Assembly (NCBI GenBank): GCA_964575605.1
Contig: CAZNRN010000008.1
Coordinates: 47,918 to 111,917, forward strand
Length of the DNA stretch: 64,000 bases
Direction: 5' to 3'
Source of the DNA: an uncultured Micavibrio sp.
GTDB lineage: Bacteria; Pseudomonadota; Alphaproteobacteria; Micavibrionales; UBA2020
Shown here: piece by piece, positions 15,209-64,000 of the stretch
How positions within the stretch are numbered: position 1 is the stretch's first letter
How the letters are laid out: the number at the start of each line of letters is the position of its first letter
Made by a program: the position numbers and the translations under genes
The notes under the pieces: generated by a model
Databases searched by the model: none
The model's input: only the letters and a program-made list of their open reading frames with translations
What the model was told of the DNA's origin: nothing

Positions 15209-16810
<1,602 letters not shown>

Positions 16811-16813
16811 AGT

Positions 16814-17431
16814 ATGGAATCGTCTATCCGCAGGAAGATCACCGAGCATCTTGCCAATCCTATAAATACAGAGTGTAAAGCAGTTTATTTGTTATGTGAG
16901 CTGCGAAAGCTGTACGACGGCCAAAGGGATGGAATCCCTTTTACATTGCAGATGTGTATTGATTGGGCACTTCATACGGAGCTCAATGGCAAGGGCGCAC
17001 AAAATTTTTTACTTGATGTGGATAAATTTGTAGAAAGCCACTTAAATGGCAACACGGATATCTGCCACGAACACAAAACATTTGAAAATTTTTTATTTAT
17101 TGGTGACTTTAAAGTAGCGCTCAAAGACTTTTTGCTGTCAGAGGGCATCCCCACAGAGATTTGTGATGAAGAGAGCAAGTGGTCTCAATTTATCGCGGCC
17201 TATTCAGGCGTAATTGAAGATGGCAGCTTAAAATACAAAGCCGATGCGCCCTTGAAATTTATCTCGGAAGTTAAGTTCACCAAAGGACGAGCGATAAGCA
17301 ATTCGGATCTCCCATTTGAAATGAGTTGGGAAATTAGGCTACGCGATGGAAGAAAATTAATATCTTCTTTGTCTTGCAACTCAAAGAAAGGCTTTATATT
17401 CCACGCCTCTGAGCTAATTGCCGCGGTATGA
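16814..17431 (+). CDS. hypothetical protein in the low-GC islet
   Basis: 205 aa. It starts 3 nt after the guaA stop. The region is AT-rich, and no family was recognised. Confidence 0.6.
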   Translation: MESSIRRKITEHLANPINTECKAVYLLCELRKLYDGQRDGIPFTLQMCIDWALHTELNGKGAQNFLLDVDKFVESHLNGNTDICHEHKTFENFLFIGDFKVALKDFLLSEGIPTEICDEESKWSQFIAAYSGVIEDGSLKYKADAPLKFISEVKFTKGRAISNSDLPFEMSWEIRLRDGRKLISSLSCNSKKGFIFHASELIAAV

Positions 17432-18099
17432 TTCTTTATTTTTCAAATATAAGAGCCGGACAATTCATAAAAATGAATAATAGCCTTCTCGCGGCTGGAT
17501 TTGTTCTGGTTAGCTTTGTACTTTTTTACAACTCAAGCTTCGCTGGTGAAAATGGCGAATTGACGTTTACCTATACCCATAGTGGATTAGATTGCGGCAA
17601 AGATGGCGCGGGCGAGGAAAAAGAAAACAATTTCACAATAAAGGAGCTTCCCGAATTCTCCGATTATCCCGCAGAAGAGAAATCGGACAAGCTGCTTGAA
17701 TACGCCCAGATAGAAACTCACCCCGACGAATATCACCATTTAGCTGTGCGGCCTGATAAAAAATATGGCGCAAATTTCAACGGGCACTATTTTGTAGTTT
17801 CGGGCAATGTGGCGCAATGCACAGGCTGTGCTTACGCTGAAATCTTTGACACAATCACGGGTAAAAAATTAGGAAAACTGGATAACTATCAGGGGTTCAT
17901 GCCGCCGAAATTCAATATGAACAGCAGCCTCATCATAGAGAACCTGCCGGAGCAAGGCTCCGACTTATGCGTCTTTAACTCGATGCCCCCCATCAACTTT
18001 TACCAGGTAAAAAATAACGAGCTAGTAAAAATCAAAGAAGTGAAATTATTCGAAACGGAAGAATATAAAAAACTCGTTTCTTCGCTATCAAACCAATAA
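17428..18099 (+). CDS. hypothetical exported protein in the low-GC islet
   Basis: ATGA overlap with the previous ORF; an alternative start is MNNSLL at 17473. Signal-peptide-like LLAAGFVLVSFVLFYNSSFAGE. The motif ANFNGHYFVVSGNVAQCTGCAYAEIFDTITGK resembles a recurrent periplasmic hypothetical family (FAGHY...GCG..C....D..TG). Confidence 0.6.
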   Translation: MILYFSNIRAGQFIKMNNSLLAAGFVLVSFVLFYNSSFAGENGELTFTYTHSGLDCGKDGAGEEKENNFTIKELPEFSDYPAEEKSDKLLEYAQIETHPDEYHHLAVRPDKKYGANFNGHYFVVSGNVAQCTGCAYAEIFDTITGKKLGKLDNYQGFMPPKFNMNSSLIIENLPEQGSDLCVFNSMPPINFYQVKNNELVKIKEVKLFETEEYKKLVSSLSNQ

Positions 18100-18125
18100 T
18101 CGCCCTTTTTTAGGCTCACCCCCAT

Positions 18126-19995: not shown

Positions 19996-20025
19996 TTGAC
20001 TCCGGGTGGCCGGTTATTATATAAA
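19996..20025 (+). promoter_or_regulatory. sigma70-like promoter for the mntP leader
   Basis: TTGACT (19996-20001), an 18-nt spacer, then TATAAA (20020-20025). This predicts a transcription start just before riboswitch stem P1 at 20031. Confidence 0.5.
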
Positions 20026-20030
20026 ATCCC

Positions 20031-20134
20031 TATTGGGGAGTAGCCTCCACAGCCTCCCGGTGGGATGAAGCCAACATACTTGCATTTCGATGCATGGTTT
20101 CATCAGCGGATTTATCCGCCTGGCAAGACCAATA
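20031..20134 (+). promoter_or_regulatory. yybP-ykoY (Mn2+) riboswitch aptamer
   Basis: The conserved blocks GGGGAGTAGC (20035-20044), CAACATAC (20072-20079) and GGCAAGACC (20122-20130) are in the canonical order. Helices verified by hand: P1 TATTGG/CCAATA (20031-36/20129-34), GATGAA/TTCATC (20064-69/20099-104) enclosing TGCAT-ttcg-ATGCA, and GCGGA-ttta-TCCGC (20106-20119). It lies directly upstream of mntP, the classic regulated gene. Confidence 0.85.
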
Positions 20135-20182
20135 CAGCGCGAAAGCCTTTACCGGCTTGTCTTTCGCAGGCTGTATTGTGTC

Positions 20183-20767
20183 ATGAAGCCGGCGGAGATT
20201 ACAAAAGTGGGCATCCTTTCCACCGCCATCCTCGCTTTCAGCATGTCGACCGACGCCTTCGCCGTGTCCATCGGGAAGGGCGCGGGCCTGCACAAACCGC
20301 AGCTGAAGGAAGCCTTCCGCACCGGCGCGATTTTCGGCGCGGTCGAGGCCTCGACCCCCGTGATCGGCTGGCTGCTGGGATTGGCCGCCAGCACGCATGT
20401 CGAAAGCGTCGACCACTGGATCGCGTTTTTCGTGCTGGGCGGCATCGGCGTGAAGATGATTGTCGAGGCCTTCAAGGGTTCCGCAGGCGAAAAACCGCGC
20501 AGCCACAGCATCGGCCGCCTCGCCCTGACAGCGCTTGGCACCAGCATCGATTCGATGGCGGTGGGTGTGAGTTTATCGGTTCTGGGCGCGCCGATTGCGA
20601 TCACCGCCGCCAGCATCGGCCTTGCGACCTTTACCATGGTGACGCTGGGCCTGATGACCGGCCAGTACCTGGGAAGCCGCTTCGGCAAGGGCGCGGAGCT
20701 CTGCGGCGGCGCGGCGCTGCTGTTCCTGGGCACCAAAATACTGCTGGAGCATTTGGGATACATCTAA
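20183..20767 (+). CDS. mntP: manganese efflux pump MntP
   Basis: Two DUF204-type repeats (SMSTDAFAVSIGKG and GTSIDSMAVGVS), about 6 TM helices and a riboswitch upstream. The start was moved to MKPAEI (20183). Confidence 0.85.
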   Translation: MKPAEITKVGILSTAILAFSMSTDAFAVSIGKGAGLHKPQLKEAFRTGAIFGAVEASTPVIGWLLGLAASTHVESVDHWIAFFVLGGIGVKMIVEAFKGSAGEKPRSHSIGRLALTALGTSIDSMAVGVSLSVLGAPIAITAASIGLATFTMVTLGLMTGQYLGSRFGKGAELCGGAALLFLGTKILLEHLGYI

Positions 20768-47837: not shown

Positions 47838-49751
47838 ATGTGCGGCATCACCGGCATCGTCTCGGCATCTCGCCCCGCAGGCATGGAACAGCTGAAACGC
47901 GGCACCGACGCGCTGGTCCACCGCGGCCCGGACGGCGAGGGTTTTTATATCGCCGCCAATAAAACGGCTGCCCTCGGCCACCGCCGCCTGTCGATCGTCG
48001 ACCTGTCGACCGGCAGCCAGCCGATTTCCAGCGAAGACGGCCGCAAGCACATCGTCGTTAACGGCGAATTCTACGGTCACGCCGACATCCGCCGCGGCCT
48101 TGAAGCACTCGGGCATGTTTTCAAGACAAAGTCCGACAGCGAGATTGCGCTGCACCTGTACGAGGAATACGGCACAGCCTGCCTCGAACACCTGCGCGGC
48201 GAATTCGCCTTTATCCTCTGGGACGAAGACAAGCAGATGCTGTTCGCCGCGCGCGACCGTTTTGGCATCAAGCCGCTGTGCTATACCCAATATAACGGCC
48301 AGTTACTGCTGGCATCCGAGGCGAAAGCCCTGTTTGCCATGGGCGCGCCCGCGGCCTGGGACGATTACAGCTTTTTCCACGCCGCCCAGCTGCAATACAC
48401 GCCGCAGGACCGCACGCTGTTTAAAAACATTTTCCAGCTGAAGCCCGGCCATGCGCTGGTGGCCAAGGGCGGCCGCACCGAAACCTTTAAATACTGGGAC
48501 CTTGATTTCCTGCCCGAAGCGCAAACCGATAAAGGCAGCGAAAAAGACCTCATCGACGCCTTCGCAGCGGAACTGGAACAATCCATCCGCCTGCGGCTGA
48601 TGGCCGATGTGCCGGTCTGTTTCCACCTGTCGGGCGGGCTGGACAGCGCAAGCGTGCTCGGCCTGGCCGCCAGCATCACGGGCAAGCAGCTGGATGCCTT
48701 CACCGTCAGCTTCGGGCATGAAGGCTACGACGAACTGCCCATCGCCGAAGAAATGGCCAAGACCCGCGGCGCGCGCCTGCACGCGGTCCACGTAACGCAA
48801 GAGGATTTAGTGCGCGAGCTGCCCGACGCTGTTTATTACGGCGAAGGCCTCGCCATCAACGGCCACCTGGCCGGCAAATACATGCTGAACCGCGCCATCC
48901 GCCGCGCCGGGTTCAAGGTTGCCTTGACGGGCGAAGGCTCTGACGAAATCCTCGCCGGCTATCCGCACCTGCGGCAGGACCTGCTGCGCGCGGAGGCGTC
49001 GAACGACGTCGCCGCCAAAGCCATGGCGAAAATCTACGCCACCAACGGCGCATCGGCCGGGGTACAAATCGCCCTTGGCGCCCAACTACCGACGCAGGCC
49101 GTGAAAGCGGCGCTGGGGTATACCCCCGCCTTCCTCGAGGCCAAGGCCTCGCTGGGTAGCCGCATGTCCGGCGTGCTCTCGGACGGTTTCGCCGCGCAAT
49201 TCACGCGCACCGACAGCTATGCCGAACTGATGGCGGCAACGCCTGTGGCCGAACAGCTGAAAGGCCGCCACCCCGTGAACCAGTCGTCGTGGATATGGGC
49301 GAAGACGGCGCTGGCCAATTACATCCTGCGCACGCTGGGCGACGGGATGGAGATGGCGCAGTCGGTCGAAGGCCGCCTGCCCTTCCTCGACCACAAGCTG
49401 TTCGAAACCGCGCGCCGCCTGCCGCTGGGCCTGAAAATAAAAGGCATGGTGGAAAAATACGTGCTGCGCGAAGCTGCAAAACCCCACATCACCGATACCA
49501 TCTACCGCCGCCAGAAACACCCCTTCATGGCGCCGCCCGTGACGTCGCATGCCAATGCCGCACTGATGGAACTGGTGGGCGATACGCTGCAATCGGCGAG
49601 CTTCGCCGCACTGCCTTTCTTCGACCGCAAGAAAGCGCTGGCAGCCCTGCACGGACTGCCCGCCATGGCAGCGCCGGAGCGCGCCGCGATGGAGCCCGTT
49701 CTGATGACGATGCTGACCGCTAACATGCTGCAACAGGAATTCGGATTATGA
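47838..49751 (+). CDS. asparagine synthetase B-like glutamine amidotransferase
   Basis: Start MCGITGIV (Ntn Cys2), HRGPDGEG and PP-loop HLSGGLDSA. The start was moved from 47724 to 47838, 1 nt after the upstream stop. Confidence 0.85.
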   Translation: MCGITGIVSASRPAGMEQLKRGTDALVHRGPDGEGFYIAANKTAALGHRRLSIVDLSTGSQPISSEDGRKHIVVNGEFYGHADIRRGLEALGHVFKTKSDSEIALHLYEEYGTACLEHLRGEFAFILWDEDKQMLFAARDRFGIKPLCYTQYNGQLLLASEAKALFAMGAPAAWDDYSFFHAAQLQYTPQDRTLFKNIFQLKPGHALVAKGGRTETFKYWDLDFLPEAQTDKGSEKDLIDAFAAELEQSIRLRLMADVPVCFHLSGGLDSASVLGLAASITGKQLDAFTVSFGHEGYDELPIAEEMAKTRGARLHAVHVTQEDLVRELPDAVYYGEGLAINGHLAGKYMLNRAIRRAGFKVALTGEGSDEILAGYPHLRQDLLRAEASNDVAAKAMAKIYATNGASAGVQIALGAQLPTQAVKAALGYTPAFLEAKASLGSRMSGVLSDGFAAQFTRTDSYAELMAATPVAEQLKGRHPVNQSSWIWAKTALANYILRTLGDGMEMAQSVEGRLPFLDHKLFETARRLPLGLKIKGMVEKYVLREAAKPHITDTIYRRQKHPFMAPPVTSHANAALMELVGDTLQSASFAALPFFDRKKALAALHGLPAMAAPERAAMEPVLMTMLTANMLQQEFGL

Positions 49752-50536
49752 CCCCCGACGCACAGGAAAGAACCAAAGCCAGCTGGTGCGAAGATTTCTT
49801 CGACGACCTTTTCGCCGAACACTGCCTTGCAACCCGCACGCCAGACGAGCTGCAGGCCATCACCACCTTCCTGCAGCGTGAGCTGAAACTTGGAACCGGC
49901 GACGCCGTTTTCGACCAGTGCTGCGGCATTGGCACGCTCAGCCTTGCGCTGGCGAAGCGGGGGTTGCGCACCTTTGGCGTCGACCTTATCCCTTCCTACA
50001 TCGACACGGCAAAAAACGCGGCGGTAAAGATGCAGGCCGCCTGCACTTTCGCTGCGGCCGACGCGGCTTTCTATTGCCCACCCGTGCCCTGCGACGCCGC
50101 TATCAACTGGTGGACCAGTTTCGGTTATTTCGAGGACGACGCCGAAAACCTGAAAATGCTGAAAGCCGCGCGCCGCAGCCTGAAGCCCGGCGCGTCCTTT
50201 GCGCTTGATTACATGAACACGCCCGAACGCCTTGCGCTGATGGGCGGCAGGCCCGTGACGTCATGGCGCGCGGAAAAACCCGGCTGCGTCGTCTCCTGCG
50301 ACACCCGCATCGACGGCCGCATGCTGGTCAAGGACTGGAAATACGAAGGCGCGGATAGCAGGAAGGTTGAAAAACGCGGCGGCGGCGTCAAGCTGTACAC
50401 GCAGCAGGAACTCGAAAGCCTGCTGGAGCAGGCCGGTTTCACCGCCGTCCGCTTCTATGGCAGTGTCAAGGGCGAGGCACTGGCCGTCAACAGCCCGCGC
50501 TGCATCGCCATCGCGCAAAACGGCAGTGCGCCATGA
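49748..50536 (+). CDS. class I SAM-dependent methyltransferase
   Basis: Motif I VFDQCCGIGTLSLALA, followed by GVDL and LKPGASF. ATGA overlap on both sides. Confidence 0.8.
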   Translation: MTPDAQERTKASWCEDFFDDLFAEHCLATRTPDELQAITTFLQRELKLGTGDAVFDQCCGIGTLSLALAKRGLRTFGVDLIPSYIDTAKNAAVKMQAACTFAAADAAFYCPPVPCDAAINWWTSFGYFEDDAENLKMLKAARRSLKPGASFALDYMNTPERLALMGGRPVTSWRAEKPGCVVSCDTRIDGRMLVKDWKYEGADSRKVEKRGGGVKLYTQQELESLLEQAGFTAVRFYGSVKGEALAVNSPRCIAIAQNGSAP

Positions 50537-51354
50537 TGCTGCCCTTTCCGCAGGCAGATAACGAAACTTTCCGCCGCGCGGTCTATGCGGGCGGCATCTT
50601 CCGCATACCCGCCACCACGCTTTCGGCGACGTTGGCGGCGGAAGTGATGGAGACGATGGCCGCGTATTTTGGCGCCCCCGGGACCGCGCATGAACGATAT
50701 ACATTTGCTGATATGCAGCCCGCCATGTCCGCTGCCCGCGCGGAGCTGGCGTCGCAACAGCGCTACCGCGATATCCAGTCGCAACTGCTGGCGGCTGCGG
50801 GTTTCACGCCTGATGAGCTTGCCGTCGACGCCTTGCGCCTGCGCTGCGTAATGAATAACGGCCACCTGAACAAGGGCGCGGAACTGGCCTATACCGCCCA
50901 CCGCGATACATGGTACGGCAACCCTCAGGCACAGCTGAATTTCTGGATGGCGCTGCATGACGTGACGCCGGCGCAAAGCTTTACCTTCTATCCCTCGCTC
51001 TTCACCCGACCGGTGGCGAATACATCGCAGGGTTTCAGCTATGCGACGTGGATGGAAAAACGCGGCTGGCAAGGCGCGAAAAGCGACGCGGCGGTGGAAT
51101 ACCCCGTCGTGCTGGAACAGCCGCAAGACACTGCCGCCTTTTCCTTCACGGCCAGTGCCGGCGATATGATCGTCTTTTCGGCCGCGCAACTCCACCAAAC
51201 CGTTAAAAATTCGAGCGGCATCACGCGTTACAGCCTCGATTTCCGCGCCGTGCACCTGGGCGACCACAAGGCAGGTTTGGGCGCGCCCAATGCCGACAAC
51301 GGCTCGCAGCCCGAGGCGCTGAAGGATTACTACACGCCGGGCAGGGCGGCATGA
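50533..51354 (+). CDS. PhyH-like Fe(II)/2-oxoglutarate oxygenase-like protein
   Basis: AHRDTWY (HxD), NFWMALHDV and AGDMIVFSAAQLHQTVKNSSGITRYSLDFR (distal His plus Arg) fit the PhyH/2OG oxygenase facial triad layout. Confidence 0.6.
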   Translation: MMLPFPQADNETFRRAVYAGGIFRIPATTLSATLAAEVMETMAAYFGAPGTAHERYTFADMQPAMSAARAELASQQRYRDIQSQLLAAAGFTPDELAVDALRLRCVMNNGHLNKGAELAYTAHRDTWYGNPQAQLNFWMALHDVTPAQSFTFYPSLFTRPVANTSQGFSYATWMEKRGWQGAKSDAAVEYPVVLEQPQDTAAFSFTASAGDMIVFSAAQLHQTVKNSSGITRYSLDFRAVHLGDHKAGLGAPNADNGSQPEALKDYYTPGRAA

Positions 51355-54300
51355 AAACGCTCTGGCAGCACATGGCGCCTTCCGCGGCCATCGCCATCCG
51401 CGACAATGGCCGCGAGATCAGCTATGCCGAAATGCTCGGCCGCGCCGCCGCGCTGGGTGAAAAGCTGAAGGCACAGGGCGTTACGTCCGAAACCCCGGTT
51501 GCGCTATCGCTGGAGAAATCGGCAGAATACATCATCGCGCTGCTGGCTGTCTGGCATGCGGGCGGGGCTTTTGTCCCGCTGCCGCCATCGCTGCCGGAGG
51601 AACGCCGCAAATTTATTATCGGCGACGCGGGCATCAGGCATTTCATTTCCCGTGAAGACGTAACGGCAGAGACAGCTTCTACCGCGCCTTTCGCTGCGCA
51701 AGCCGGTGCGCTTGCCTATATCATCTATACATCGGGCTCGACGGGCAGGCCCAAGGGCGTGATGGTCGAGCACCGCGGCTTGATGAACCTGTTTTCGGCG
51801 CAGGCGAAAGCTTTCGGCATGAAGGCCGGAAGCCGCTCGCTCTTCTGCCTCTCGGTCAATTTCGACGCTTCGGTGTCGGATATCGGCGTAGCGCTCTATG
51901 CCGGCGCGATGCTGGTGATTGATGGCAGCGACAGGCCCTTGCCGCAGGTGATGCGCACCCATGCCATCACCCATATCGACATGCCGCCCGCGCTGCTGAA
52001 ATCGATGCAGCCTGCCGATATGCCCGACAGCCTTGAAACCATCATTATCGGCGGCGAGGCCTGCCCGCCCGCGACGGTGCGCGACTTTGCCCGGAAATTC
52101 CGCGTCGTCAACGTCTATGGCCCGACCGAGGCGACCGTCTGCACCAGCCTGAATATCTGCGACGCCCAAACCTGGGACAAGCCCCTGATCGGCAACCCGC
52201 TGCCCGATGTCGAGTATGCCGTTATCGACGGTGAGCTGCAAATAGGCGGCGGCATGCTGGCGCGCGGGTATGTCAACCTGCCCGCGCTGACTGCCGAAAA
52301 ATTCATTACACGCGGCGGAAAGCGATTTTACCGCACGGGCGACAGCGTGCGCGAAACGCCGCAGGGGCTTGAATTCCTCGGCCGCATCGACCGCCAGTTC
52401 AAGCTGCGCGGCCAGTTGGTGGAACCGGACGAGGTCGAGGCACAGCTGCGCAGCCATCCGCAGGTGATGAAAGCGGCCGTTATCAAACGCGGCGAACAGC
52501 TGGTCGCCTTCGTCGCGCTGTCCGATAAATCCGCCAAAGCGGGTTTGGCGGACTGGCTGGCGGCACGCTTGCCCGCCTATATGGTGCCGCAGCATTTCGA
52601 GGTCGTTTCGCGCCTGCCATTGACGGTCACCGACAAAATCGATTATGCCGCACTGGCAACCCTGCCGCTGCAGACCGATCGCGCGCGCATCGTTCCCCGT
52701 ACCGAGACCGAAAAAAAGCTCTTCGCCATCTGGCAGGCCGTATTGAAACACGGCGATTTTGGCGTGACCGACGCCTTTTACGCCGCGGGCGGGGATTCGC
52801 TGGGCATTATACGCATGGCGATGGAATCCGAGCGGCAAGGGCTGCCGCTGTCTCCAGAGTTTATCGCGCGGCACATGACTATCGAGGCACAGGCCGCACA
52901 TATGGGGCAGAACGCCAGCGCACTTTCCGCCGCATGGCTGAAAGAAGACGTTGCTTTTTCGAAAGAAGACATTCAGTTGCTGGAAAAGGCTGCGCAGCGC
53001 CCCGCTACCCCTGCAAAACTTGAAAATATCCTGCTGACCGGCGCAACGGGTTTCCTCGGCTCGCGCGTATTGTGTGAATTGCTGGCGCAGACGAAGGCCA
53101 CCGTTTACTGCCTTGTGCGCGCACCCGATGCAGCCGGCGCGTTGCAGCGCATGATCGACGCGGCGGCGAAATTCGCCGTGCCCGCGACAGACTGGTCGCG
53201 CGTAGTGCCCGTCACCGGCGACCTGACGCAGCCATGCGGCGGACTGGACGCCGCCGCATGGCAAAGCCTTGCCGATAATATTGACGCCATTTACCACTGC
53301 GCCGCCTGCGTCAATATGGTGCTGCCCTATGCCGATATGCGGGCGGCGAATACGGGCGCGGCGCTCGAACTGCTGCGCCTTGCCGCTACGGGCAAACGCA
53401 AATCGCTGCATTACGCTTCGACCCTGTCGGTTTTCGTTGCGACGGACCAGAACACCGGCACATTGCTGGAAAGCGACCGCCTTGAAAACGTCACCACCGT
53501 TTACGGCGGCTATGCCCAGACGAAATTCGCAGCGGAATGGATGCTATTGCAGGCGCCGCATGAGGCCGTGCCTGTATCGCATTACAGGTTGGGATTGATT
53601 ACCGGCGATACAGTAACGGGCGCGGCTTCGGCCACCGATTTCCTCGCGCTGTTCTTCAAGGGCGCGCGCGAGCTGGGCGCTATGCCGGAAGAGGCGTTGA
53701 AAACCCTCTCGGTCGATATCACGCCGCTCGATTACGCCGCAAAAGCGCTGGTTTCCCTCTCCCTGGGCGGCAGGCCCGATGTTTACCACATCGCAGGCAA
53801 GGGCGTGACGCTGGAGCAGCTGGTGAAGCCGCTGAACCTGCGCGCCCTGCCGAAAACCCGCTGGCTGGAGATGATGCGCAACAAGCCGCTGGGCATGGAA
53901 GAAACCGCGGCCGCCCTGTCGCTCTGCCGCATCTTCGGCGACGCGGAATTTTCGCGCCACCGCACCATGGACCTGTTTCAGGCGACCAGCGTTATCTTTG
54001 ATACCCGCAATACAGATGCCGTCCTAGATTTCACCTGCCCGCCTGCGGATGAAAAACTGATTTCGCTTTATGCCGCGCAATCGCTGAAAGGCGCGCCGCG
54101 CGTGAAAATCTGCCTTTTCGGGCCGGAGTCGACGGGCAAGTCGACGCTGGCGGAAAAGCTGGCGGGGCATTACAAGGCGGCCTTCGTGCCCGAATACGCC
54201 AAGCAGCATATCGCGGCCAATGACGGCGATATCGGCTATGACGATATCCCGAAAATCGCGGCGGGACAGGCAAAGGCGGAATCGGCTGCGAAAACCGCAC

Positions 54301-54617
54301 CGCTGCTGTTCTGTGATACCGACCTGATCACCACCACGATCTGGAGCGACTGGCTGTTCCGCGACTGCCCGCAGTGGGTGCGTGACGCGGCCGAGGCCTC
54401 GCGCTATGACCTTTATTTGCTGATGGATGTCGATACGCCCTGGGTGGCCGATATCCACCGCTACCTGCCCGAAGACCGCGCGAATTTTCTCGCCCGCTGC
54501 GAAGACGAATTGCGCGCCCGCGGACTGCGGTATATAAAGCTGTCGGGCAGCTGGGACGATAAATTCAAAAACGCCTGCGCCGAAGTCGAGAAGGTCAGAG
54601 GAGAAAAACATGCTTGA
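51351..54617 (+). CDS. NRPS-like adenylation - PCP - thioester reductase fused to a NadR-type P-loop kinase (AAA_28-like) domain
   Basis: A domain: YIIYTSGSTGRPKGV, FDASVSD, YGPTE and YRTGD. PCP: GGDSLG (~52791). R domain: LLTGATGFLGSRV (~53031) and YAQTK. C-terminal ~175 aa: ICLFGPESTGKSTLAEKLA...FCDTDLITT...LLMDVDTPWVAD, which aligns by eye with the E. coli NadR ribosylnicotinamide kinase domain. Confidence 0.85.
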   Translation: MKTLWQHMAPSAAIAIRDNGREISYAEMLGRAAALGEKLKAQGVTSETPVALSLEKSAEYIIALLAVWHAGGAFVPLPPSLPEERRKFIIGDAGIRHFISREDVTAETASTAPFAAQAGALAYIIYTSGSTGRPKGVMVEHRGLMNLFSAQAKAFGMKAGSRSLFCLSVNFDASVSDIGVALYAGAMLVIDGSDRPLPQVMRTHAITHIDMPPALLKSMQPADMPDSLETIIIGGEACPPATVRDFARKFRVVNVYGPTEATVCTSLNICDAQTWDKPLIGNPLPDVEYAVIDGELQIGGGMLARGYVNLPALTAEKFITRGGKRFYRTGDSVRETPQGLEFLGRIDRQFKLRGQLVEPDEVEAQLRSHPQVMKAAVIKRGEQLVAFVALSDKSAKAGLADWLAARLPAYMVPQHFEVVSRLPLTVTDKIDYAALATLPLQTDRARIVPRTETEKKLFAIWQAVLKHGDFGVTDAFYAAGGDSLGIIRMAMESERQGLPLSPEFIARHMTIEAQAAHMGQNASALSAAWLKEDVAFSKEDIQLLEKAAQRPATPAKLENILLTGATGFLGSRVLCELLAQTKATVYCLVRAPDAAGALQRMIDAAAKFAVPATDWSRVVPVTGDLTQPCGGLDAAAWQSLADNIDAIYHCAACVNMVLPYADMRAANTGAALELLRLAATGKRKSLHYASTLSVFVATDQNTGTLLESDRLENVTTVYGGYAQTKFAAEWMLLQAPHEAVPVSHYRLGLITGDTVTGAASATDFLALFFKGARELGAMPEEALKTLSVDITPLDYAAKALVSLSLGGRPDVYHIAGKGVTLEQLVKPLNLRALPKTRWLEMMRNKPLGMEETAAALSLCRIFGDAEFSRHRTMDLFQATSVIFDTRNTDAVLDFTCPPADEKLISLYAAQSLKGAPRVKICLFGPESTGKSTLAEKLAGHYKAAFVPEYAKQHIAANDGDIGYDDIPKIAAGQAKAESAAKTAPLLFCDTDLITTTIWSDWLFRDCPQWVRDAAEASRYDLYLLMDVDTPWVADIHRYLPEDRANFLARCEDELRARGLRYIKLSGSWDDKFKNACAEVEKVRGEKHA

Positions 54618-55716
54618 ACGCACCGCCGAAATCGTCGAGGGCATCGAAAGCGAATTCGTGGGGCACGGCCTCGCCTTCGGCAAGTTCATGCCGCCCACCA
54701 ACGGGCATATCTACTTTCTCAACTTTGCCCGGAAATCATGCCGAAAGCTGACCATCCTCGTCTGCTCGCTGCCGACCGAACCCATCCCGGGTGAGCAGCG
54801 TTACAAATGGATCAAGGAGCTGTTCCCCGACTGCAACGTCGTGCACCATTACATCGACATCCCGCAGGAGCCCAAGGGCCCCGGCGACATCGCGTTTTTC
54901 GAGACATGGCGCGACAGTATCCACAAGCACTGCCCCGGCGAAACCTTCGACGCGCTTTTCGCGTCGGAATCCTACGGCTATAACGTCGCGAAAATCATGG
55001 ATATCAAATTCGTGCCCGTCGACGTCAAGCGCGACCTGGTGCAGATATCGGGCACCGCCATGCGTGACAACCCCTTGCAGCATTGGGAACACCTGCACCC
55101 CGTCGTGCGCCCCTATTTCCTGAAGCGCATCGCCGTGGTCGGCCCTGAATCGACCGGCAAATCGATGCTGGCGAAAAACCTGGCCGCGCATTTCGGCACG
55201 GTGCATGTCGGCGAATACGCCCGCGCCATGCTGACCGATTACGCGGCGAACATCCCGGGCTTCGATGTGTCCAAACCAACGCTGCGCGATTTTTCGACCA
55301 TTGCGCGCGGGCAGGTGGCGTCGGAGGAATCTTTATCCCGTCAAGCCAACCGTTTACTGGTCTGCGACACCGAGCTTGCCACCACCGCCTATTGGGCGCG
55401 GCATTTCTTTGGGCAATGCCCGCACTGGATCGAAAAAGCGGCTGAGGCGCGGAAATACGACCTTTACATGCTGCTCGACCCCCGCGGCATCGAAAAACAC
55501 TATGCCGATGACGCACTGCGCTTTATGCCGAAGCTGGAGGACCGTATTGCCATGTTCGACTGGTGGAAGGCGGAGCTGACCCGCCGCGGCCTGCCCTATG
55601 CCGTGATATCGGGCGATGACTGGCGCGCAAGGTTCCAGCAGGCCGTCGTCGCCGTCTACCAGAATATCCCCGGCATGATTTCGGCCGAAGGCGCAAGACT
55701 TGGCAGTGCCGCCTGA
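54610..55716 (+). CDS. NadR-family bifunctional NMN adenylyltransferase / ribosylnicotinamide kinase homolog lacking the HTH domain
   Basis: FGKFMPPTNGHIYFLNFA resembles E. coli NadR FGKFYPLHTGHIYLIQRA. ISGTAMRDNP is present. The kinase domain reads VVGPESTGKSMLAKNLA...VCDTELATT. 8-nt overlap (ATGCTTGA) with the upstream gene. Confidence 0.8.
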   Translation: MLERTAEIVEGIESEFVGHGLAFGKFMPPTNGHIYFLNFARKSCRKLTILVCSLPTEPIPGEQRYKWIKELFPDCNVVHHYIDIPQEPKGPGDIAFFETWRDSIHKHCPGETFDALFASESYGYNVAKIMDIKFVPVDVKRDLVQISGTAMRDNPLQHWEHLHPVVRPYFLKRIAVVGPESTGKSMLAKNLAAHFGTVHVGEYARAMLTDYAANIPGFDVSKPTLRDFSTIARGQVASEESLSRQANRLLVCDTELATTAYWARHFFGQCPHWIEKAAEARKYDLYMLLDPRGIEKHYADDALRFMPKLEDRIAMFDWWKAELTRRGLPYAVISGDDWRARFQQAVVAVYQNIPGMISAEGARLGSAA

Positions 55717-55733: not shown

Positions 55734-56234
55734 GTGGAGGTCCCCATGCGCCAGCGCCGTTCTGCCGGAAAATTCTTTTTTCAGCGATTGCTGATTATCG
55801 GCCTTATCATCGTCTTTGGCGCGCCTGCCGCGCTGAAGGAAATGGCGACGCTGAACCCGCTCGACCCCACGGGCCGCGTCGACAGCTATCGCGCCGCAGC
55901 CGCGCCGCGCCTGCCCGACAGCCGCCGCATCCATATCCTCTATGGCGACGACCACGGCGGCGGGCACCTGCATGGCGTGAACAGGCCCTGCAAATCCGAA
56001 TTTCCCGCCGACTGGAGCGAAAAAGACATCGTGGCCTCCGTCAAGGCAATCGCCGCCAACGACAACCTCGGCTGGCAGCGGCAGAAAAACGGGAATGTGG
56101 TGGCAGACACAGTCGACCATGGCGTGAAAATCCGCGTCGTGCTGAACAGCGACCTGACCGAAATCGTCACGGCCTATCCGCTGTCGACGCCGCGCAACGC
56201 CTGCCCGGCCGCCAACGACAACGAAAAAGATTAA
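55734..56234 (+). CDS. membrane-anchored/exported EndoU_bacteria-like nuclease-domain protein
   Basis: N-terminal hydrophobic helix FFFQRLLIIGLIIVFGAPAAL. Then HILYGDDHGGGHLHG...CKSEFPADWSEKDI...GVKIRVVLNSDLTEIVTAYPL, which matches my recollection of the bacterial EndoU toxin-domain profile. The alternative ATG start is at 55746. Confidence 0.65.
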   Translation: MEVPMRQRRSAGKFFFQRLLIIGLIIVFGAPAALKEMATLNPLDPTGRVDSYRAAAAPRLPDSRRIHILYGDDHGGGHLHGVNRPCKSEFPADWSEKDIVASVKAIAANDNLGWQRQKNGNVVADTVDHGVKIRVVLNSDLTEIVTAYPLSTPRNACPAANDNEKD

Positions 56235-58647: not shown

Positions 58648-60006
58648 ATGACGACGACCGCACCGAAGAAAAAGAAGAACACCAAAGAACAGGAAGCCCC
58701 GACCGTGGGCATCGTGTCGCTCGGCTGCCCCAAGGCGCTGGTCGATACGGAGCGGATTCTGACGCAGCTGAGATCCGAAGGTTACCAGCTCTCCCCCGAT
58801 TACGCAGGCGCGGACATGGTGATCGTAAACACCTGCGGCTTCCTCGACAGCGCGAAGAAGGAATCGCTGGAGGCCATCGGCGAAGCGATGAGCGCCAACG
58901 GCAAGGTCATCGTGACGGGCTGCATGGGCGCCGAGCCCGAGCAGATTACCAAGGAATTTCCCAAGGTGCTGGCCGTGACCGGCCCGCAGCAGTACGAAGC
59001 CGTGGTCAGCGAAGTGCACAAGGTAGCACCCCCGCCGCACGACCCCTTCGTCGACCTCGTCCCGCCGCAGGGTATCAAGCTGACGCCCCGCCATTATGCG
59101 TATTTGAAGATTTCCGAGGGCTGCAACAACCGTTGCACCTTCTGCATTATCCCTAAGCTACGCGGCGACCTCGTCTCTCGCCCTGTTATTCAGGTGCTGG
59201 CGGAAGCCGAACGCCTTGTGAAGGCGGGCGTGAAGGAAATCCTTGTGATCTCGCAGGATACTTCCGCTTACGGCATCGATACCAAATACCAGGCCTATCC
59301 GTATAAAAACCGTACGGTGCGCACGAAGTTCATCGACCTGTGCAAGGAACTGGGCGAGCTGGGCGTCTGGGTGCGTTTGCACTACGTCTATCCCTATCCG
59401 CATGTGGACGAGGTTTTCGGGTTGATGAACGAGGGCAAGGTCCTGCCCTATATCGACATCCCCTTCCAGCATGCTTCGCCCGCGGTGCTGAAAAACATGC
59501 GCCGCCCCGCGCACCAGGAAAAAACGCTGGAGCGCATCAAAAGCTGGCGCAAGATGTGCCCCGACCTCACCATCCGATCGACCTTCATCGTCGGCTTCCC
59601 CGGCGAAACGGACGCGGATTTCGAATTGCTGCTGCAGTTCATGAAAGAGGCGGAGCTGGAGCGCGTCGGCTGCTTCAAATACGAACCGGTGACGGGCGCC
59701 GATTCAAACAAGATCGAGCCCCACGTCGCGCCCGAAGTGATGGAAGAACGCTACCACCGCTTTATGACGCTGCAGCAGGAAATTTCGGCCAAGAAACTCG
59801 CCGCGAAAATCGGCCGCACCCTGCCCGTGCTGATCGACAGCGTCGGCCAGGAAGGTGCGCTCGGCCGTTCATCCGCCGACGCCCCCGAGATTGACGGCAA
59901 CGTGAAAATCATGAGCAAAAACCTGAAACTCGCCCCCGGCGACCTCGTCAACGTCAAAATCACCGAAGCCGACGAATACGACCTGACCGGCAAGCTGGCG
60001 GTTTAA
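58648..60006 (+). CDS. rimO: ribosomal protein S12 methylthiotransferase
   Basis: [22 protein letters not shown], radical [11 protein letters not shown] and a C-terminal TRAM region. Confidence 0.9.
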
Positions 60007-60560
60007 AAAATCCCGAGGAAACGTTTTCTTTTCGCAGGCGGCTGTGGCTGCGGCGCTTCTACGGGCGCGGGCGCTGCTGCGGGTTGCGGTTGGGGTTTCG
60101 CGGGGAGCAGGAAATCCATTATCTCGGTACGCTTGGCGCTGCGGGCATAGCCATAGGCGGACATGCCGGTGGCGTTTTTGTAGAAGGGGTCGGCGCCTTT
60201 TTCGACCAGCAACTTAGCAACATCCATATGGCCGTGGCCGGCCGCGCCCATCAGGGGCGTGGAATTGATGCGGTTTTTGACCTCGAGCGGGATGCCTTTT
60301 TCCAGCAGGAATTCGACGGCGGCCTTGTGGCCGTACTGCGCCGCGAAAAACAGCGCGGTATTGCCGCAGTCGTCGGTGGCCAGCAGCCTTGCGCCTTTTT
60401 CCAGCTGCGCCTTCAGCGCGGACACATCGCCCCGGCGCGCGGCGTCGAGGTAAGGTTTTTCGAGCACGCCCAGCGCCCTGTCCATCGCGGCATCCGCCTT
60501 ATTGAAGGCGGCGCGCAAGGCGGCCATTTCTTCTTTCACAGCCTTGAATTCATCATCCAT
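60003..60560 (-). CDS. ankyrin-repeat protein with N-terminal coiled coil and P/Q-rich tail
   Basis: [24 protein letters not shown] and [26 protein letters not shown] are ANK repeats. The tail is [20 protein letters not shown]. Confidence 0.8.
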
Positions 60561-60562
60561 GG

Positions 60563-61213
60563 TCAGCGTCCTTTCACGGGTGCGGCGAGTTTCAGCTTGC
60601 CCAGGCCACAGTCGAAGACCTCTTCCTCGCTGCGCTTGCCGCCGCGGCGGCGGTGTTCGTCGAAGGCCTTTTGCAGCGCGCCGCGGTCGGGCAGCTGGCT
60701 GAAGGCTTCGCGCTGCAGCGCCTCGACCTCGCCGGCTTCGGATTTACGCACGAAGGTCACGCGCTCGAGGCGTTTGAAGTCGTAAATTTCCTGCATGAAA
60801 CGGTCGTCGACCTGCCAGACGTTGCTGACCTCATCGGGCAGGCGTTTCAGCGCGCGGATGCAGTTGGCATGCGACTGGTCGCGCGCATAGGCCATCGCGG
60901 TCTTGTTGTCGTTGTTCACCCGCTTGGTATCCGCGCCGCGTTCCATCAGCAGCGCTACAACCTGCGCATTACCGCGAAAGGCGGCGCACATCAGCGGGGT
61001 CGATTTCTTGGTATTGACGATATTGGGGTCGGCGCCGTTGTCGAGCAGCCATTCGACGATCAATGCATGGCCCTTGTTGGCCGCGCGCACCAGCGGCGGG
61101 TCGCCGGCACCGGTGGCGTTCACATTCGCGCCGCGCCGGACGGCGTCGATGGCGCGCTGGCCTTCACCGTTCTCGCAGGCGTCACAAAGCTCTTTATCTT
61201 CCGCCATGCCCAT
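60563..61213 (-). CDS. ankyrin-repeat protein with a conserved unknown C-terminal domain
   Basis: ANK repeats are PPLVRAANKGHALIVEWLLDNGADPN and STPLMCAAFRGNAQVVALLMERGAD. The C-terminal domain EIYDFKRLERV... is shared with the next gene. Confidence 0.8.
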   Translation of the reverse strand: MGMAEDKELCDACENGEGQRAIDAVRRGANVNATGAGDPPLVRAANKGHALIVEWLLDNGADPNIVNTKKSTPLMCAAFRGNAQVVALLMERGADTKRVNNDNKTAMAYARDQSHANCIRALKRLPDEVSNVWQVDDRFMQEIYDFKRLERVTFVRKSEAGEVEALQREAFSQLPDRGALQKAFDEHRRRGGKRSEEEVFDCGLGKLKLAAPVKGR

Positions 61214-61216
61214 GCG

Positions 61217-61909
61217 TTACAGCCTTTTGCGCGGGCCGTCGCCCTCGCGCGGCTTGAATTTCACCAGCACTTCGGGGAACACTTCCGCCTCCGCGCGCCT
61301 GCCGCCTTTTTTGACGTAGTCGTTGAAGGCATGCCGCAGCGCCGTGCGGTCGCGGATATCGTCGAAATCCTGCCGCGTCACGGCCTCGACCGGGCCGGTC
61401 GGCGATGCGCGCACCATCGAAATGCGCTCCAGCAGCTTGAAGTCGTAAATTTCTTCCAGCGTCTTGTCGCGCAGGGGGCGGGTACGCACGATTTCTTCGG
61501 GGCCTTCGGGATGCGGCGGGACTTTTTCGGCGACCAGCAAAGCCACTATCTTGTAATGGCCATGCACCAGCGCAAATTCCATCGCGTTCGCGCCGCCCTT
61601 GTGGCGCAGCTCGCGGTCGGCGCCGGCCTCGAACAGCAGGCGCGCACATTCGAGATGCCCCTGCTCGGCCGCGCCCATCAGGGGCGTCGCGAGGCGTTCG
61701 TTCAAGCCGTCGACCGGCGCGCCCTGCGCCAGCAAAAATTTCACGCAAGCCGCATGGCCGTTGTACGCGGCGTAAAACAGCGGCCCGTTGTTTTTCTGTT
61801 CGATATGCGCGCCCGCGTCGACAAGGCGTTTGACCTCCGCCAGGTCGCCGCGCTTGCAGGCCTCGGTCAGGTCATGGTCGCGCTGTTTTTGCGGATTGCC
61901 GCCGAACAT
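61217..61909 (-). CDS. ankyrin-repeat protein with a conserved unknown C-terminal domain
   Basis: ANK repeats are GPLFYAAYNGHAACVKFLLAQGAP and ATPLMGAAEQGHLECARLLFEAGAD. The C-terminal domain is EIYDFKLLERI.... Confidence 0.8.
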   Translation of the reverse strand: MFGGNPQKQRDHDLTEACKRGDLAEVKRLVDAGAHIEQKNNGPLFYAAYNGHAACVKFLLAQGAPVDGLNERLATPLMGAAEQGHLECARLLFEAGADRELRHKGGANAMEFALVHGHYKIVALLVAEKVPPHPEGPEEIVRTRPLRDKTLEEIYDFKLLERISMVRASPTGPVEAVTRQDFDDIRDRTALRHAFNDYVKKGGRRAEAEVFPEVLVKFKPREGDGPRKRL

Positions 61910-62142
61910 GTTTTTTCCCTAAAGATGAATTCCCATAGCGGTAGCACGCGGTATTTTTGGACGCAATATCGCATGATATTTTACATAACTTGATAATGAG
62001 AGGGACGACCCCTTCGGGGGGCGGTTTCTCAGAGGTTCAAGCCGCCCAAGGCACCCGTTTCCTGCCCGAATCCCTTGACGGTGATTATGAAATATACGAT
62101 AAAGATGCCAACTATAATTGAATCATTTCAAGAAGGCTGCCC

Positions 62143-63120
62143 ATGCCAGGGATCATCAAAAACCGGGTACTCGTTTTCATTACTGTTGCCATCCTCGCGG
62201 CCGGCCTCGCCGCCCCCGCCGCTGCCGGCGTCTTCGACGGCATCACGAACATCTTCTCTCCCAAGACCAAGGCCGCGGCGAAAAAAGCCGCCGAAAGCCC
62301 CGAAGCCCAGAACGCCAGCACCGGCTGCCTCGAAGGCATGCTGAACGCAGTTGCCTCGGGCATCGACAAGAAGCAGGGCTGCGCGCAGGGCATCCAGCGC
62401 AAGTTCCAGGAACAGGAACAGAAGGACCAGCAGAAGGAACAGGAACTGCTGCAGCAGAAAACCGCCGAAAGCTATAACCGCCGCATCGACCGCGTCAACG
62501 AGCGCATCATCGAGCGCCAGCCGCGCATCGAGCGCATCGTCGCCGAGAAAAAAGGCGACGCCCCCGTGCGCGACGAGGAAGACATCGTCAAGGACATGGA
62601 CAAGAAATGCCGCAACGACGCCAATTGCCGCGAAGCCGTGATCGAGGCCGAGATGGAGCAGGCGTCGCCCGGCGTATTCAAAAGCGTCTGGTACTGGATG
62701 TTCCCGGGTTCCGCCCCCAAGGCGAAGAAAGAACTGAAAGGCATCGAGCGCGACATCGCCTTCCTCGAAAAATCGATGGAGCAGATAAAGGACACGATCG
62801 ACGAGGCCGAAGAACAGTTCGAAAACGCCACCACCACAAAACAGAAGAGCGAATACGCGCGCGACAAGGGCCAGCTGGTGTCGCAATACAGCCAGGCCAT
62901 GCAGGCGCTGAAAACGCTGAAAGAGCAGCAGGACACGCTGGACAGCGGTTATTTCGCCTATGTCGCCATGTTCTTTGCGGCCATCGGCGGTACGGTGATG
63001 AAGAAATTCAGCGACCATACCGTGAACCTCTCCCTCGATAGCGCCAAGGGCATTATTTCCCGCGTGCGCGGCCGCAAGAAAAAGGGCACCAAAAAAGGCC
63101 CCGAGCATTCGATGTACTAA
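62143..63120 (+). CDS. hypothetical exported coiled-coil protein with a C-terminal TM helix
   Basis: Signal-like VLVFITVAILAAGLAAPAAAG, E/K/Q-rich heptad-like stretches, late TM FAYVAMFFAAIGGTVM and a basic tail. Confidence 0.65.
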   Translation: MPGIIKNRVLVFITVAILAAGLAAPAAAGVFDGITNIFSPKTKAAAKKAAESPEAQNASTGCLEGMLNAVASGIDKKQGCAQGIQRKFQEQEQKDQQKEQELLQQKTAESYNRRIDRVNERIIERQPRIERIVAEKKGDAPVRDEEDIVKDMDKKCRNDANCREAVIEAEMEQASPGVFKSVWYWMFPGSAPKAKKELKGIERDIAFLEKSMEQIKDTIDEAEEQFENATTTKQKSEYARDKGQLVSQYSQAMQALKTLKEQQDTLDSGYFAYVAMFFAAIGGTVMKKFSDHTVNLSLDSAKGIISRVRGRKKKGTKKGPEHSMY

Positions 63121-63976: not shown

Positions 63977-64000
63977 TGACAAACGACTCCGCCAAAACCG
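63976..64000 (+). CDS. possible start of the next CDS (partial)
   Basis: TAATG overlap with the preceding stop. It reads MTNDSAKT and then the window ends, which is too short to judge. Confidence 0.25.

Follow-up and report, generated by a model that had tools for sequence, protein, structure and literature searches.

The stretch of DNA analysed here, 64,000 nucleotides of contig CAZNRN010000008.1 (hereafter the window), carries three adjacent minus-strand genes, A, B, and C, which encode small ankyrin-repeat (ANK) proteins. Genes A and B share a C-terminal domain (the CT domain) that is a real, undescribed protein family without known homologues. The ANK module itself is ordinary; what is new is the undescribed domain attached to ankyrin proteins. 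The array in which these genes lie is a core, syntenic, and vertically inherited chromosomal locus that is specific to one bacterial clade, and is not an island.

When the last ~85 residues of A and B were aligned with those of eleven homologues, a gap-free alignment with 71% mean column identity was obtained, and the profile derived from it matches A and B with E-values of 3e-42 and 3.5e-38, respectively, over a domain of ~80 residues that is C-terminal in both proteins. Scored exhaustively against 1.84 billion cluster representatives, this profile recovered 273 representatives at E<=1e-3, of which 151 reached E<=1e-10; when run as a word-indexed homology search, it gave 4 proteins only, which reflects a limitation of the index in view of the exhaustive result. 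The domain almost always occupies the extreme C-terminus of proteins of 180–370 aa. Pfam ANK matches were found in 132 of 150 CT-bearing representatives, most of the others being short sequences and probably fragments, and no second recurring domain was detected by Pfam in this set (one weak single match). A and B are 37% identical when aligned end to end (214 aa, E 2e-40), with 36% identity between their ANK modules and 44% over 82 aa between their CT domains alone (BLASTP, E 6e-24). A preliminary description of this DNA had reported an unrecognised C-terminal domain common to A and B on the basis of 31 identities counted by hand; the count was reproduced (31 of 59 residues in the EIYDF...EVF core), the proposed ranges lie close to those mapped here, and the domain proved unrecognised in Pfam, NCBIfam, PADLOC, PDB-sequence, and PDB-fold comparisons alike.

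The CT domain alone matched no Pfam family at E<=10, and PDB-sequence profile searches returned nothing significant. NCBIfam and PADLOC matches to the full proteins cover ANK residues only and lie far under the respective cut-offs, for which reason membership of the family in a defence system was rejected; a specific comparison with the anti-phage ankyrin proteins MzaA and PDC-M72A gave no full-length match (MzaA, 57–72 bits versus a cut-off of 800). A phage origin was likewise set aside, as no relative was found in IMG/VR and no fold neighbour among viral models (BFVD; best Foldseek E 0.011). Two further candidates were discarded: a likeness between the helix-GGK segment and residues 66–89 of P. 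aeruginosa SutA (E 0.16; 91% in a post-hoc hhalign comparison of the fragment) fell to E 0.64 with a 66-sequence profile, behind designed proteins and a superantigen, and was treated as chance, and protein P0172 (670 aa, 10 partial matches), considered as a repeat form of the domain, turned out to be a low-complexity sequence with spurious Pfam matches. In the literature searched, neither the CT domain, nor its obligate fusion to ANK repeats, nor ordered arrays beside rimO, nor a restriction to Micavibrio-like bacteria was found.

Structure prediction, which the preliminary description had proposed as a check on the domain, gave a confident AlphaFold model (predicted local distance difference test score, pLDDT, 89.7 for the domain alone and 92.6 in the full-length model) without a fold neighbour in the PDB (best Foldseek E 0.06, TM <= 0.46). 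The predicted fold is a four-strand antiparallel beta-meander (strands at domain positions 2–9, 12–19, 24–30, and 37–44) followed by a helix of 13 residues (51–63), an invariant GG turn, and two short helices. Across the 150 representatives, the CT domain averages 40% pairwise identity versus 29% for the ANK module, the latter being conserved only at repeat-framework positions. The conserved polar residues of the CT domain (E16, E24, R25, and R42) alternate with core hydrophobics along the strands, and on the model this arrangement would fit a binding face on the sheet.

All three genes encode clear ANK modules, with Pfam Ank_2 matches of 87.5 bits for A (E 9e-25), 59.4 bits for B (E 5e-16), and 86.5 bits for C (E 2e-24), each above the gathering cut-off of 27.3. 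The full-length AlphaFold model of A (pLDDT 92.6, predicted TM-score 0.70) contains four ANK helix-pair repeats, which superpose on four-repeat DARPins (designed ankyrin-repeat proteins) at 1.0–1.6 A over ~120 residues (Foldseek, TMt 0.85–0.92) with 33–43% identity. The N-terminal 120–130 residues thus form a canonical ANK stack, as in generic bacterial ANK and DARPin-like modules (PF12796, PF00023). Unlike generic ANK proteins, however, the array proteins carry an obligate ~80-residue alpha+beta CT domain and are arranged in ordered tandem arrays at one site.

The open reading frames (ORFs) of A, B, and C agree exactly with the coordinates and the 2- and 3-nt gaps given in the preliminary description, the A/B spacer consisting of 3 nt (CGC) and the B/C spacer of 2 nt (CC). 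Shine-Dalgarno-like AAGG or AAAGGA motifs sit within the 3' end of each preceding array gene, and the stop codon of C overlaps that of the convergent rimO gene by 4 nt. Terminator-like hairpins (8, versus 4.5 +/- 2.2 in shuffled sequence) were not commoner than in shuffled sequence. A single A-B-C operon, as had been proposed, is the natural reading of this arrangement, given the short gaps, the lack of a terminator excess, and a promoter-like element that is conserved in relatives only upstream of A.

In the relatives, this element consists of a TTG-N17-TGCTA block followed by an inverted repeat, CTATGGCAAAT-N5/6-ATTGCCATAGG, and occurs upstream of the first array gene only. In 9 of 11 loci, the inverted repeat gives a single match, always immediately 5' of the gene that opens the array, and its right arm is degenerate in the window and in two related loci (L003 and L012; related loci are designated by L numbers). 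An RNA hairpin was considered, and pair counts gave it no support: 77.8% of cells are paired versus 76.9% in shuffles, with one compensatory change and no covariation. A putative protein-binding operator is therefore the likelier interpretation, and the sequence suggests a target for a dimeric DNA-binding regulator of the operon. A sigma-54 reading of TGGCAA...TTGCC was rejected, as the GG-to-GC spacing is 14–15 nt rather than 12 and the GG is absent in L007.

Profile searches of the related loci revealed tandem arrays of 1 to at least 10 copies at the same chromosomal site in 10 related genomes: two CT-domain genes were counted in L006, three each in L003 and L010, four in L009, five each in L004 and L005, and at least ten in L007 (an 8-kb contig). 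The convergent rimO gene adjoins the array in every locus whose contig reaches that far; beyond it lie, in most loci, a GNAT gene and then an epmB-like radical-SAM gene. The opposite flank is occupied in most loci by a dienelactone-hydrolase gene, which gives way to a gene for a protein of ~1,160 aa in L006 and L010. The G+C content (GC) at the array equals the window average and is genome-typical, and the surroundings are of the housekeeping kind, the window further containing purF/D/C/L/H, guaA/B, prs, and genes for an NAD synthase, a glycogen-debranching enzyme, an asparagine synthase, and a nonribosomal peptide synthetase (NRPS)-like reductase.

A scan of one genome per GTDB species located the CT domain in nine genomes, all of them metagenome-assembled genomes (MAGs), labelled Alphaproteobacteria, Proteobacteria, or Bdellovibrionales; the last label is explained by the placement of Micavibrio under Bdellovibrionales by NCBI. 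RimO from the window shares 79–89% identity with RimO from the CT-bearing MAGs and 84% with its counterpart in a MAG labelled 'Micavibrio sp.', which has the same locus with one ANK-CT gene. This identity and the shared locus indicate that the organism is a Micavibrio-related alphaproteobacterium, and it may itself be a predator. The relative Micavibrio aeruginosavorus ARL-13 lives as an obligate epibiotic predator on other bacteria and is reported to possess type I and type II but no type III or type IV secretion systems, and the word 'ankyrin' has no entry in the supplementary tables of its genome paper (PMC3189940).

Three observations on other members of the family were made alongside. The largest array, L007:1-8009, consists almost wholly of its tandem ANK-CT genes; copies of the A, B, and C subfamilies within it keep the relative order found in the window. 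Two relatives of 372 and 364 aa (L014:574-2930, plus strand) adjoin rpmE on a short metagenomic contig, and some family members thus lie outside the rimO locus; the pair shows a weak or no ANK Pfam signal, and the CT domain is present in the 364-aa protein. An mscL-like mechanosensitive-channel gene (L010:8853-9275, plus strand) lies inside an ANK-CT array, and mscL is also found near the array in L012.

A neighbour-joining (NJ) tree of 40 array members resolved old subfamilies whose relative positions along the arrays are conserved. A clusters with L003_1 and the L004_3/L005_3/L008_2/L011_2 clade, B with L003_2 (63% identical to B) and the L004_4-5/L005_4-5 clade, and C with L003_3 (73% identical to C), L009_4, and L007_08. 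Such old, ordered subfamilies suggest differentiated and retained functions rather than recent amplification.

Gene C had been described as replacing the shared domain with other parts, a view that the comparison with its subfamily overturns. Members of the C subfamily begin with an N-terminal helical extension, continue with an ANK module, a CT domain, and a Pro-rich spacer, and end in a KKRxGLF motif. The window copy aligns with its orthologues in L003, L009, and L007 over the ANK module and the tail, with ~68 residues absent. Because these orthologues share the N-terminal helix and the tail of C and also keep the CT domain, gene C is identified from the alignment as a member of the third subfamily whose CT domain was lost by in-frame deletion. 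In L003, the closest relative, the C-type copy is already degenerate (CT profile E 4e-14, versus ~1e-35 for others). The polybasic-hydrophobic C-terminus of gene C, which we take to resemble MinD-type amphipathic tails, probably serves in membrane targeting. The positions of these features are collected in Table 1.

Table 1. Positions of the features described, in the window unless a related locus is named; positions given for inverted repeats include the promoter-like block
Feature	Position	Strand	Description
Gene A	61217-61909	minus	230 aa; ANK module, linker, CT domain, basic tail (PRKRL)
Gene B	60563-61213	minus	216 aa; ANK module, CT domain, basic tail (KLKLAAPVKGR)
Gene C	60003-60560	minus	185 aa; N-terminal helix, ANK module, Pro/Gln-rich spacer, KRKRFLGIF tail
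ANK module of A (residues 1-130)	61520-61909	minus	Helix pairs 6-31, 43-61, 76-94, 109-126 (AlphaFold)
ANK module of B (residues 1-122)	60848-61213	minus	Pfam Ank_2 at residues 41-122
CT domain of A (residues 138-221)	61247-61498	minus	Four predicted beta-strands, helix, GG turn, short helices
CT domain of B (residues 127-210)	60584-60835	minus	
In-frame deletion junction in gene C	60090-60095	minus	Gap equals whole CT domain, between P156 and Q157
KRKRFLGIF polybasic-hydrophobic C-terminus of gene C	60006-60032	minus	Conserved in the subfamily (KKRRWGLF, KKKRLGLF)
Promoter-like block	61917-61968	minus	TTG - 17 nt - TGCTAC, then CTATGGGAA...TTTAGGG; window copy with degenerate right arm
Inverted repeat	L004:6758-6800		
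Inverted repeat	L005:6755-6797		
Inverted repeat	L007:77-120		
Inverted repeat	L008:6796-6838		
Inverted repeat	L009:7502-7545		
Inverted repeat	L011:6798-6840		
Gene for ~1,160-aa protein	L012:15946-19437	plus	
Gene for ~1,160-aa protein	L006:3973-7536	minus	
Gene for ~1,160-aa protein	L010:4025-7525	minus	
Gene for ~1,160-aa protein	L009:2443-5925	minus	

The interpretation that we consider most likely, albeit tentatively, is that the array proteins act inside the cell as adaptors or scaffolds. It is favoured by the core, syntenic nature of the locus, by the age and conserved order of the paralogues, and by the lack of evident export machinery: no secretion-system gene was found within the 64-kb window or in the flanks of the 10 related loci. 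A hydrophobic N-terminus was not found in A, B, or C, and a hydropathy scan of the 150 representatives detected a signal-like stretch in one sequence and transmembrane-like stretches in five, those inspected lying within ANK-type sequence. We infer cytoplasmic action, a docking role for the CT domain, membrane targeting of gene C, and an operator for the array. The surface of an ANK module outside the repeat framework is the usual protein-recognition surface, and the variable four-repeat module would serve as such here, while the constant CT domain would provide a handle for docking or assembly that binds one common partner or site inside the cell. The array would then supply a set of interchangeable adaptors with different ANK specificities, co-transcribed and co-regulated, with control of the operon exerted by a dimeric DNA-binding regulator at the promoter-proximal inverted repeat. 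Members of the third subfamily, which have an additional N-terminal helix, are probably placed at the cytoplasmic membrane by their polybasic-hydrophobic C-terminus; in this genome, gene C has lost the handle by deletion.

Several points weigh against this intracellular role. Identity among A-type orthologues is ~44%, compared with 79% for RimO and 69% for the hydrolase, and such fast evolution, together with a tenfold range in copy number, is at least equally compatible with exported or arms-race proteins. The isoelectric point (pI) of the CT domain is 9.2 in A and 5.5 in B, which would be odd if the domain bound one common partner. The docking handle, moreover, is proposed solely from the pattern of constant and variable parts, and its partner is hypothetical; the full-length model of A is compatible both with a free CT domain and with one packed on the ANK groove.

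The principal competing explanation, which we regard as unlikely though worth serious consideration, is that the ANK proteins are effectors delivered into bacterial prey, where their ANK modules would bind prey proteins; the signal for export or translocation, common to all of them, would reside in the CT domain together with the basic tail. The bipartite C-terminal signals of VirB/D4-type substrates follow a similar logic; in Bartonella Bep proteins and relaxases, the bipartite type IV secretion system (T4SS) signal comprises a BID domain (~100–140 residues, helical) and a positively charged tail. The array proteins have a comparable layout, in that a CT domain followed by a basic tail is common to many paralogues that differ N-terminally, and the last 15 residues carry a median net charge of +3 (at least +2 in 82% of the 150 representatives). 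The lack of a Sec signal, evolution faster than that of neighbouring genes, and copy numbers from 1 to at least 10 agree with delivery into prey, as does the kinship of the lineage with an epibiotic predator, Micavibrio, that is said to inject proteins into its prey (PMC3189940). The CT domain differs from BID, however, in being a predicted beta-meander with a helix, and no sequence relation was found in Pfam or PDB-sequence searches; no T4SS is known in the lineage, and M. aeruginosavorus is described as devoid of both type III and type IV systems (PMC3189940). The secretion-system genes missing from the window and from the related flanks count against export, as does the setting of old, ordered paralogues in a core syntenic locus rather than in a variable island, and gene C persists without its CT domain. 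Nor would type I secretion readily serve, stably folded ANK domains being poor substrates of that system. The more specific proposal that the CT domain and basic tail constitute an unrecognised translocation handle, bringing a diversified ankyrin set into the prey of Micavibrio-like predators, is decidedly unlikely; if true, it would reveal a family of effectors, and by extension a means of delivery, that has so far gone undescribed in bacterial predators.

Immunity genes characteristically form tandem arrays of diversified paralogues, and the arrangement seen here could mean that each paralogue neutralises one of the organism's own toxins or lytic enzymes, an explanation that we judge improbable. 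A precedent exists in Bdellovibrio, where Bd3460, a small (~23 kDa) ANK protein of a bacterial predator that acts by protein–protein binding, keeps DD-endopeptidases of the predator itself inhibited (PMC4686830). A stand-alone EndoU-type nuclease gene 4 kb from the array, conserved in the neighbourhood, is also in keeping with such a function. Bd3460, however, has a signal peptide, is periplasmic, and is encoded beside its target endopeptidase, whereas the array proteins have no signal peptide and no adjacent peptidoglycan hydrolase, and possess an extra conserved domain that self-protection leaves unexplained. Moreover, no toxin gene adjoins the array in any of the 10 loci, and the Bd3459/Bd3460 synteny is absent from epibiotic predators (PMC4686830).

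A function as nucleic-acid-binding regulators, in which the CT domain would be a PUR-, Whirly-, or AP2-like DNA/RNA module and the ANK part would recruit partners, appears very doubtful. The order and approximate lengths of the secondary-structure elements in the CT domain—four antiparallel strands and then a helix—are those of the PUR repeat (Pur-alpha, Whirly-like), the conserved arginines and the basic tail would suit nucleic-acid binding, and PUR-alpha and AP2 are among the Foldseek PDB matches (ranks 5 and 19, probabilities 0.63 and 0.54). PUR repeats also associate in pairs, and CT–CT association could be modelled on this behaviour. These matches are nevertheless non-significant (E 0.2–0.7, TM <= 0.43, root-mean-square deviation (rmsd) 9–13 A; for the PUR repeat, E 0.2 and rmsd 12.5 A), hhalign against AP2, PUR, and PC4 comparator sequences gave probabilities of 0.07–0.4% (0.07% for PUR), neither PurA nor AP2 was matched among the Pfam models at E<=10, and the CT domain of B is acidic. 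Homology to the PUR repeat is thus not supported, and the PUR, AP2, and PC4 folds were all rejected for the CT domain as alike in topology only.

The preliminary description had raised the possibility of effectors aimed at eukaryotic hosts; on this view, the organism would live with or in a eukaryote and translocate ANK proteins to manipulate it. Such a lifestyle, for which one may cite the enrichment of ANK proteins in intracellular bacteria of eukaryotes (PMC4686830), the presence of Legionella Dot/Icm Ank effectors among the weak best NCBIfam matches, and the origin of all members from metagenomes, is most improbable here: the lineage is Micavibrio-like, the locus is core and of genome-typical GC, a search for secretion systems found none within the window, the isolate names of the MAGs indicate groundwater and lake samples, and a reduced endosymbiont does not fit relatives with 3.3-Mb chromosomes and ~60% GC or a window with a near-complete de novo purine pathway. 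Although the array proteins resemble the Legionella and Coxiella Dot/Icm ankyrin effectors (NCBIfam T4SS_AnkG/H/X/Y) in combining ANK repeats with a non-ANK region and lacking a Sec signal, the matches cover the repeats only, at 12–33 bits versus cut-offs of 450–1400, the lineage, context, and CT domain differ, and no Dot/Icm genes lie in the window.

Micavibrio-type predators kill Gram-negative pathogens by a mechanism that is little understood, and roughly half the genes of the type Micavibrio genome lack an assigned function (PMC3189940). A fast-evolving, clade-restricted ankyrin family that has a domain of its own and whose arrays carry a conserved regulatory element is a testable candidate for lineage-specific biology, with prey interaction, cell-cycle switching, and self-protection as candidate roles for the array. 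The CT domain adds an uncharacterised ~80-residue fold to the domains fused with ankyrin repeats, and the array provides a counter-example to the practice of taking every bacterial ankyrin protein as the mark of a eukaryotic host.

Among the neighbours of the array, a 325-aa ORF (62143-63120, plus strand) with a hydrophobic N-terminus and a long charged coiled coil lies between the hydrolase gene and the array; it belongs to no Pfam family and gave only weak PADLOC matches of coiled-coil type, to LmuB and JetC. As no related locus has it at this position, it represents a lineage-specific insertion. The ~1,160-aa soluble protein encoded near the array in relatives is 34–54% identical between loci, and its gene, directly divergent from the array in L006 and L010, would be expected beyond window position 64000. 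This protein, a possible functional partner of the array by its position, had no NCBIfam match in three of four copies tested and, for the L012 copy, no PDB-sequence match and no precomputed Pfam assignment.

On the other side of rimO, the EndoU-type gene (55734-56234, plus strand) encodes a 166-aa stand-alone protein with an EndoU_bacteria nuclease domain (E 3.5e-13), for which neither a trafficking domain nor an adjacent immunity gene is visible; the gene lies beside the epmB-like gene in L004, L005, L009, and L012. The block that precedes it (49748-55716, plus strand) encodes a methyltransferase, a PhyH-like dioxygenase, a 1,088-aa NRPS-like protein in which an AAA_28 domain is joined to adenylation, thiolation, and reductase domains, and another AAA_28 protein. 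This block is an insertion in the present lineage, because in L004 and L005 the EndoU gene is followed directly by a glycogen-debranching-type gene.

Elsewhere in the window, a 1,337-aa ORF (9376-13389, plus strand) matches CitMHS/ArsB transporter models over residues 75–466 only, the rest of it overlapping an 835-aa antisense ORF (10795-13302, minus strand) with no Pfam match. The segment at 16001-18100 (plus strand) has a GC of 0.50 versus ~0.60, and two overlapping ORFs within it, 16814-17431 and 17428-18099, have a third-position GC (GC3) of 0.44–0.47 and no Pfam match; these ORFs, situated between guaA and guaB, are probably acquired genes. Finally, a manganese (yybP-ykoY) riboswitch at 20023-20121 (plus strand; 53 bits, above the gathering score) lies directly upstream of, and overlaps the called start of, an MntP-type manganese efflux gene (20090-20767, plus strand), which is an ordinary arrangement.

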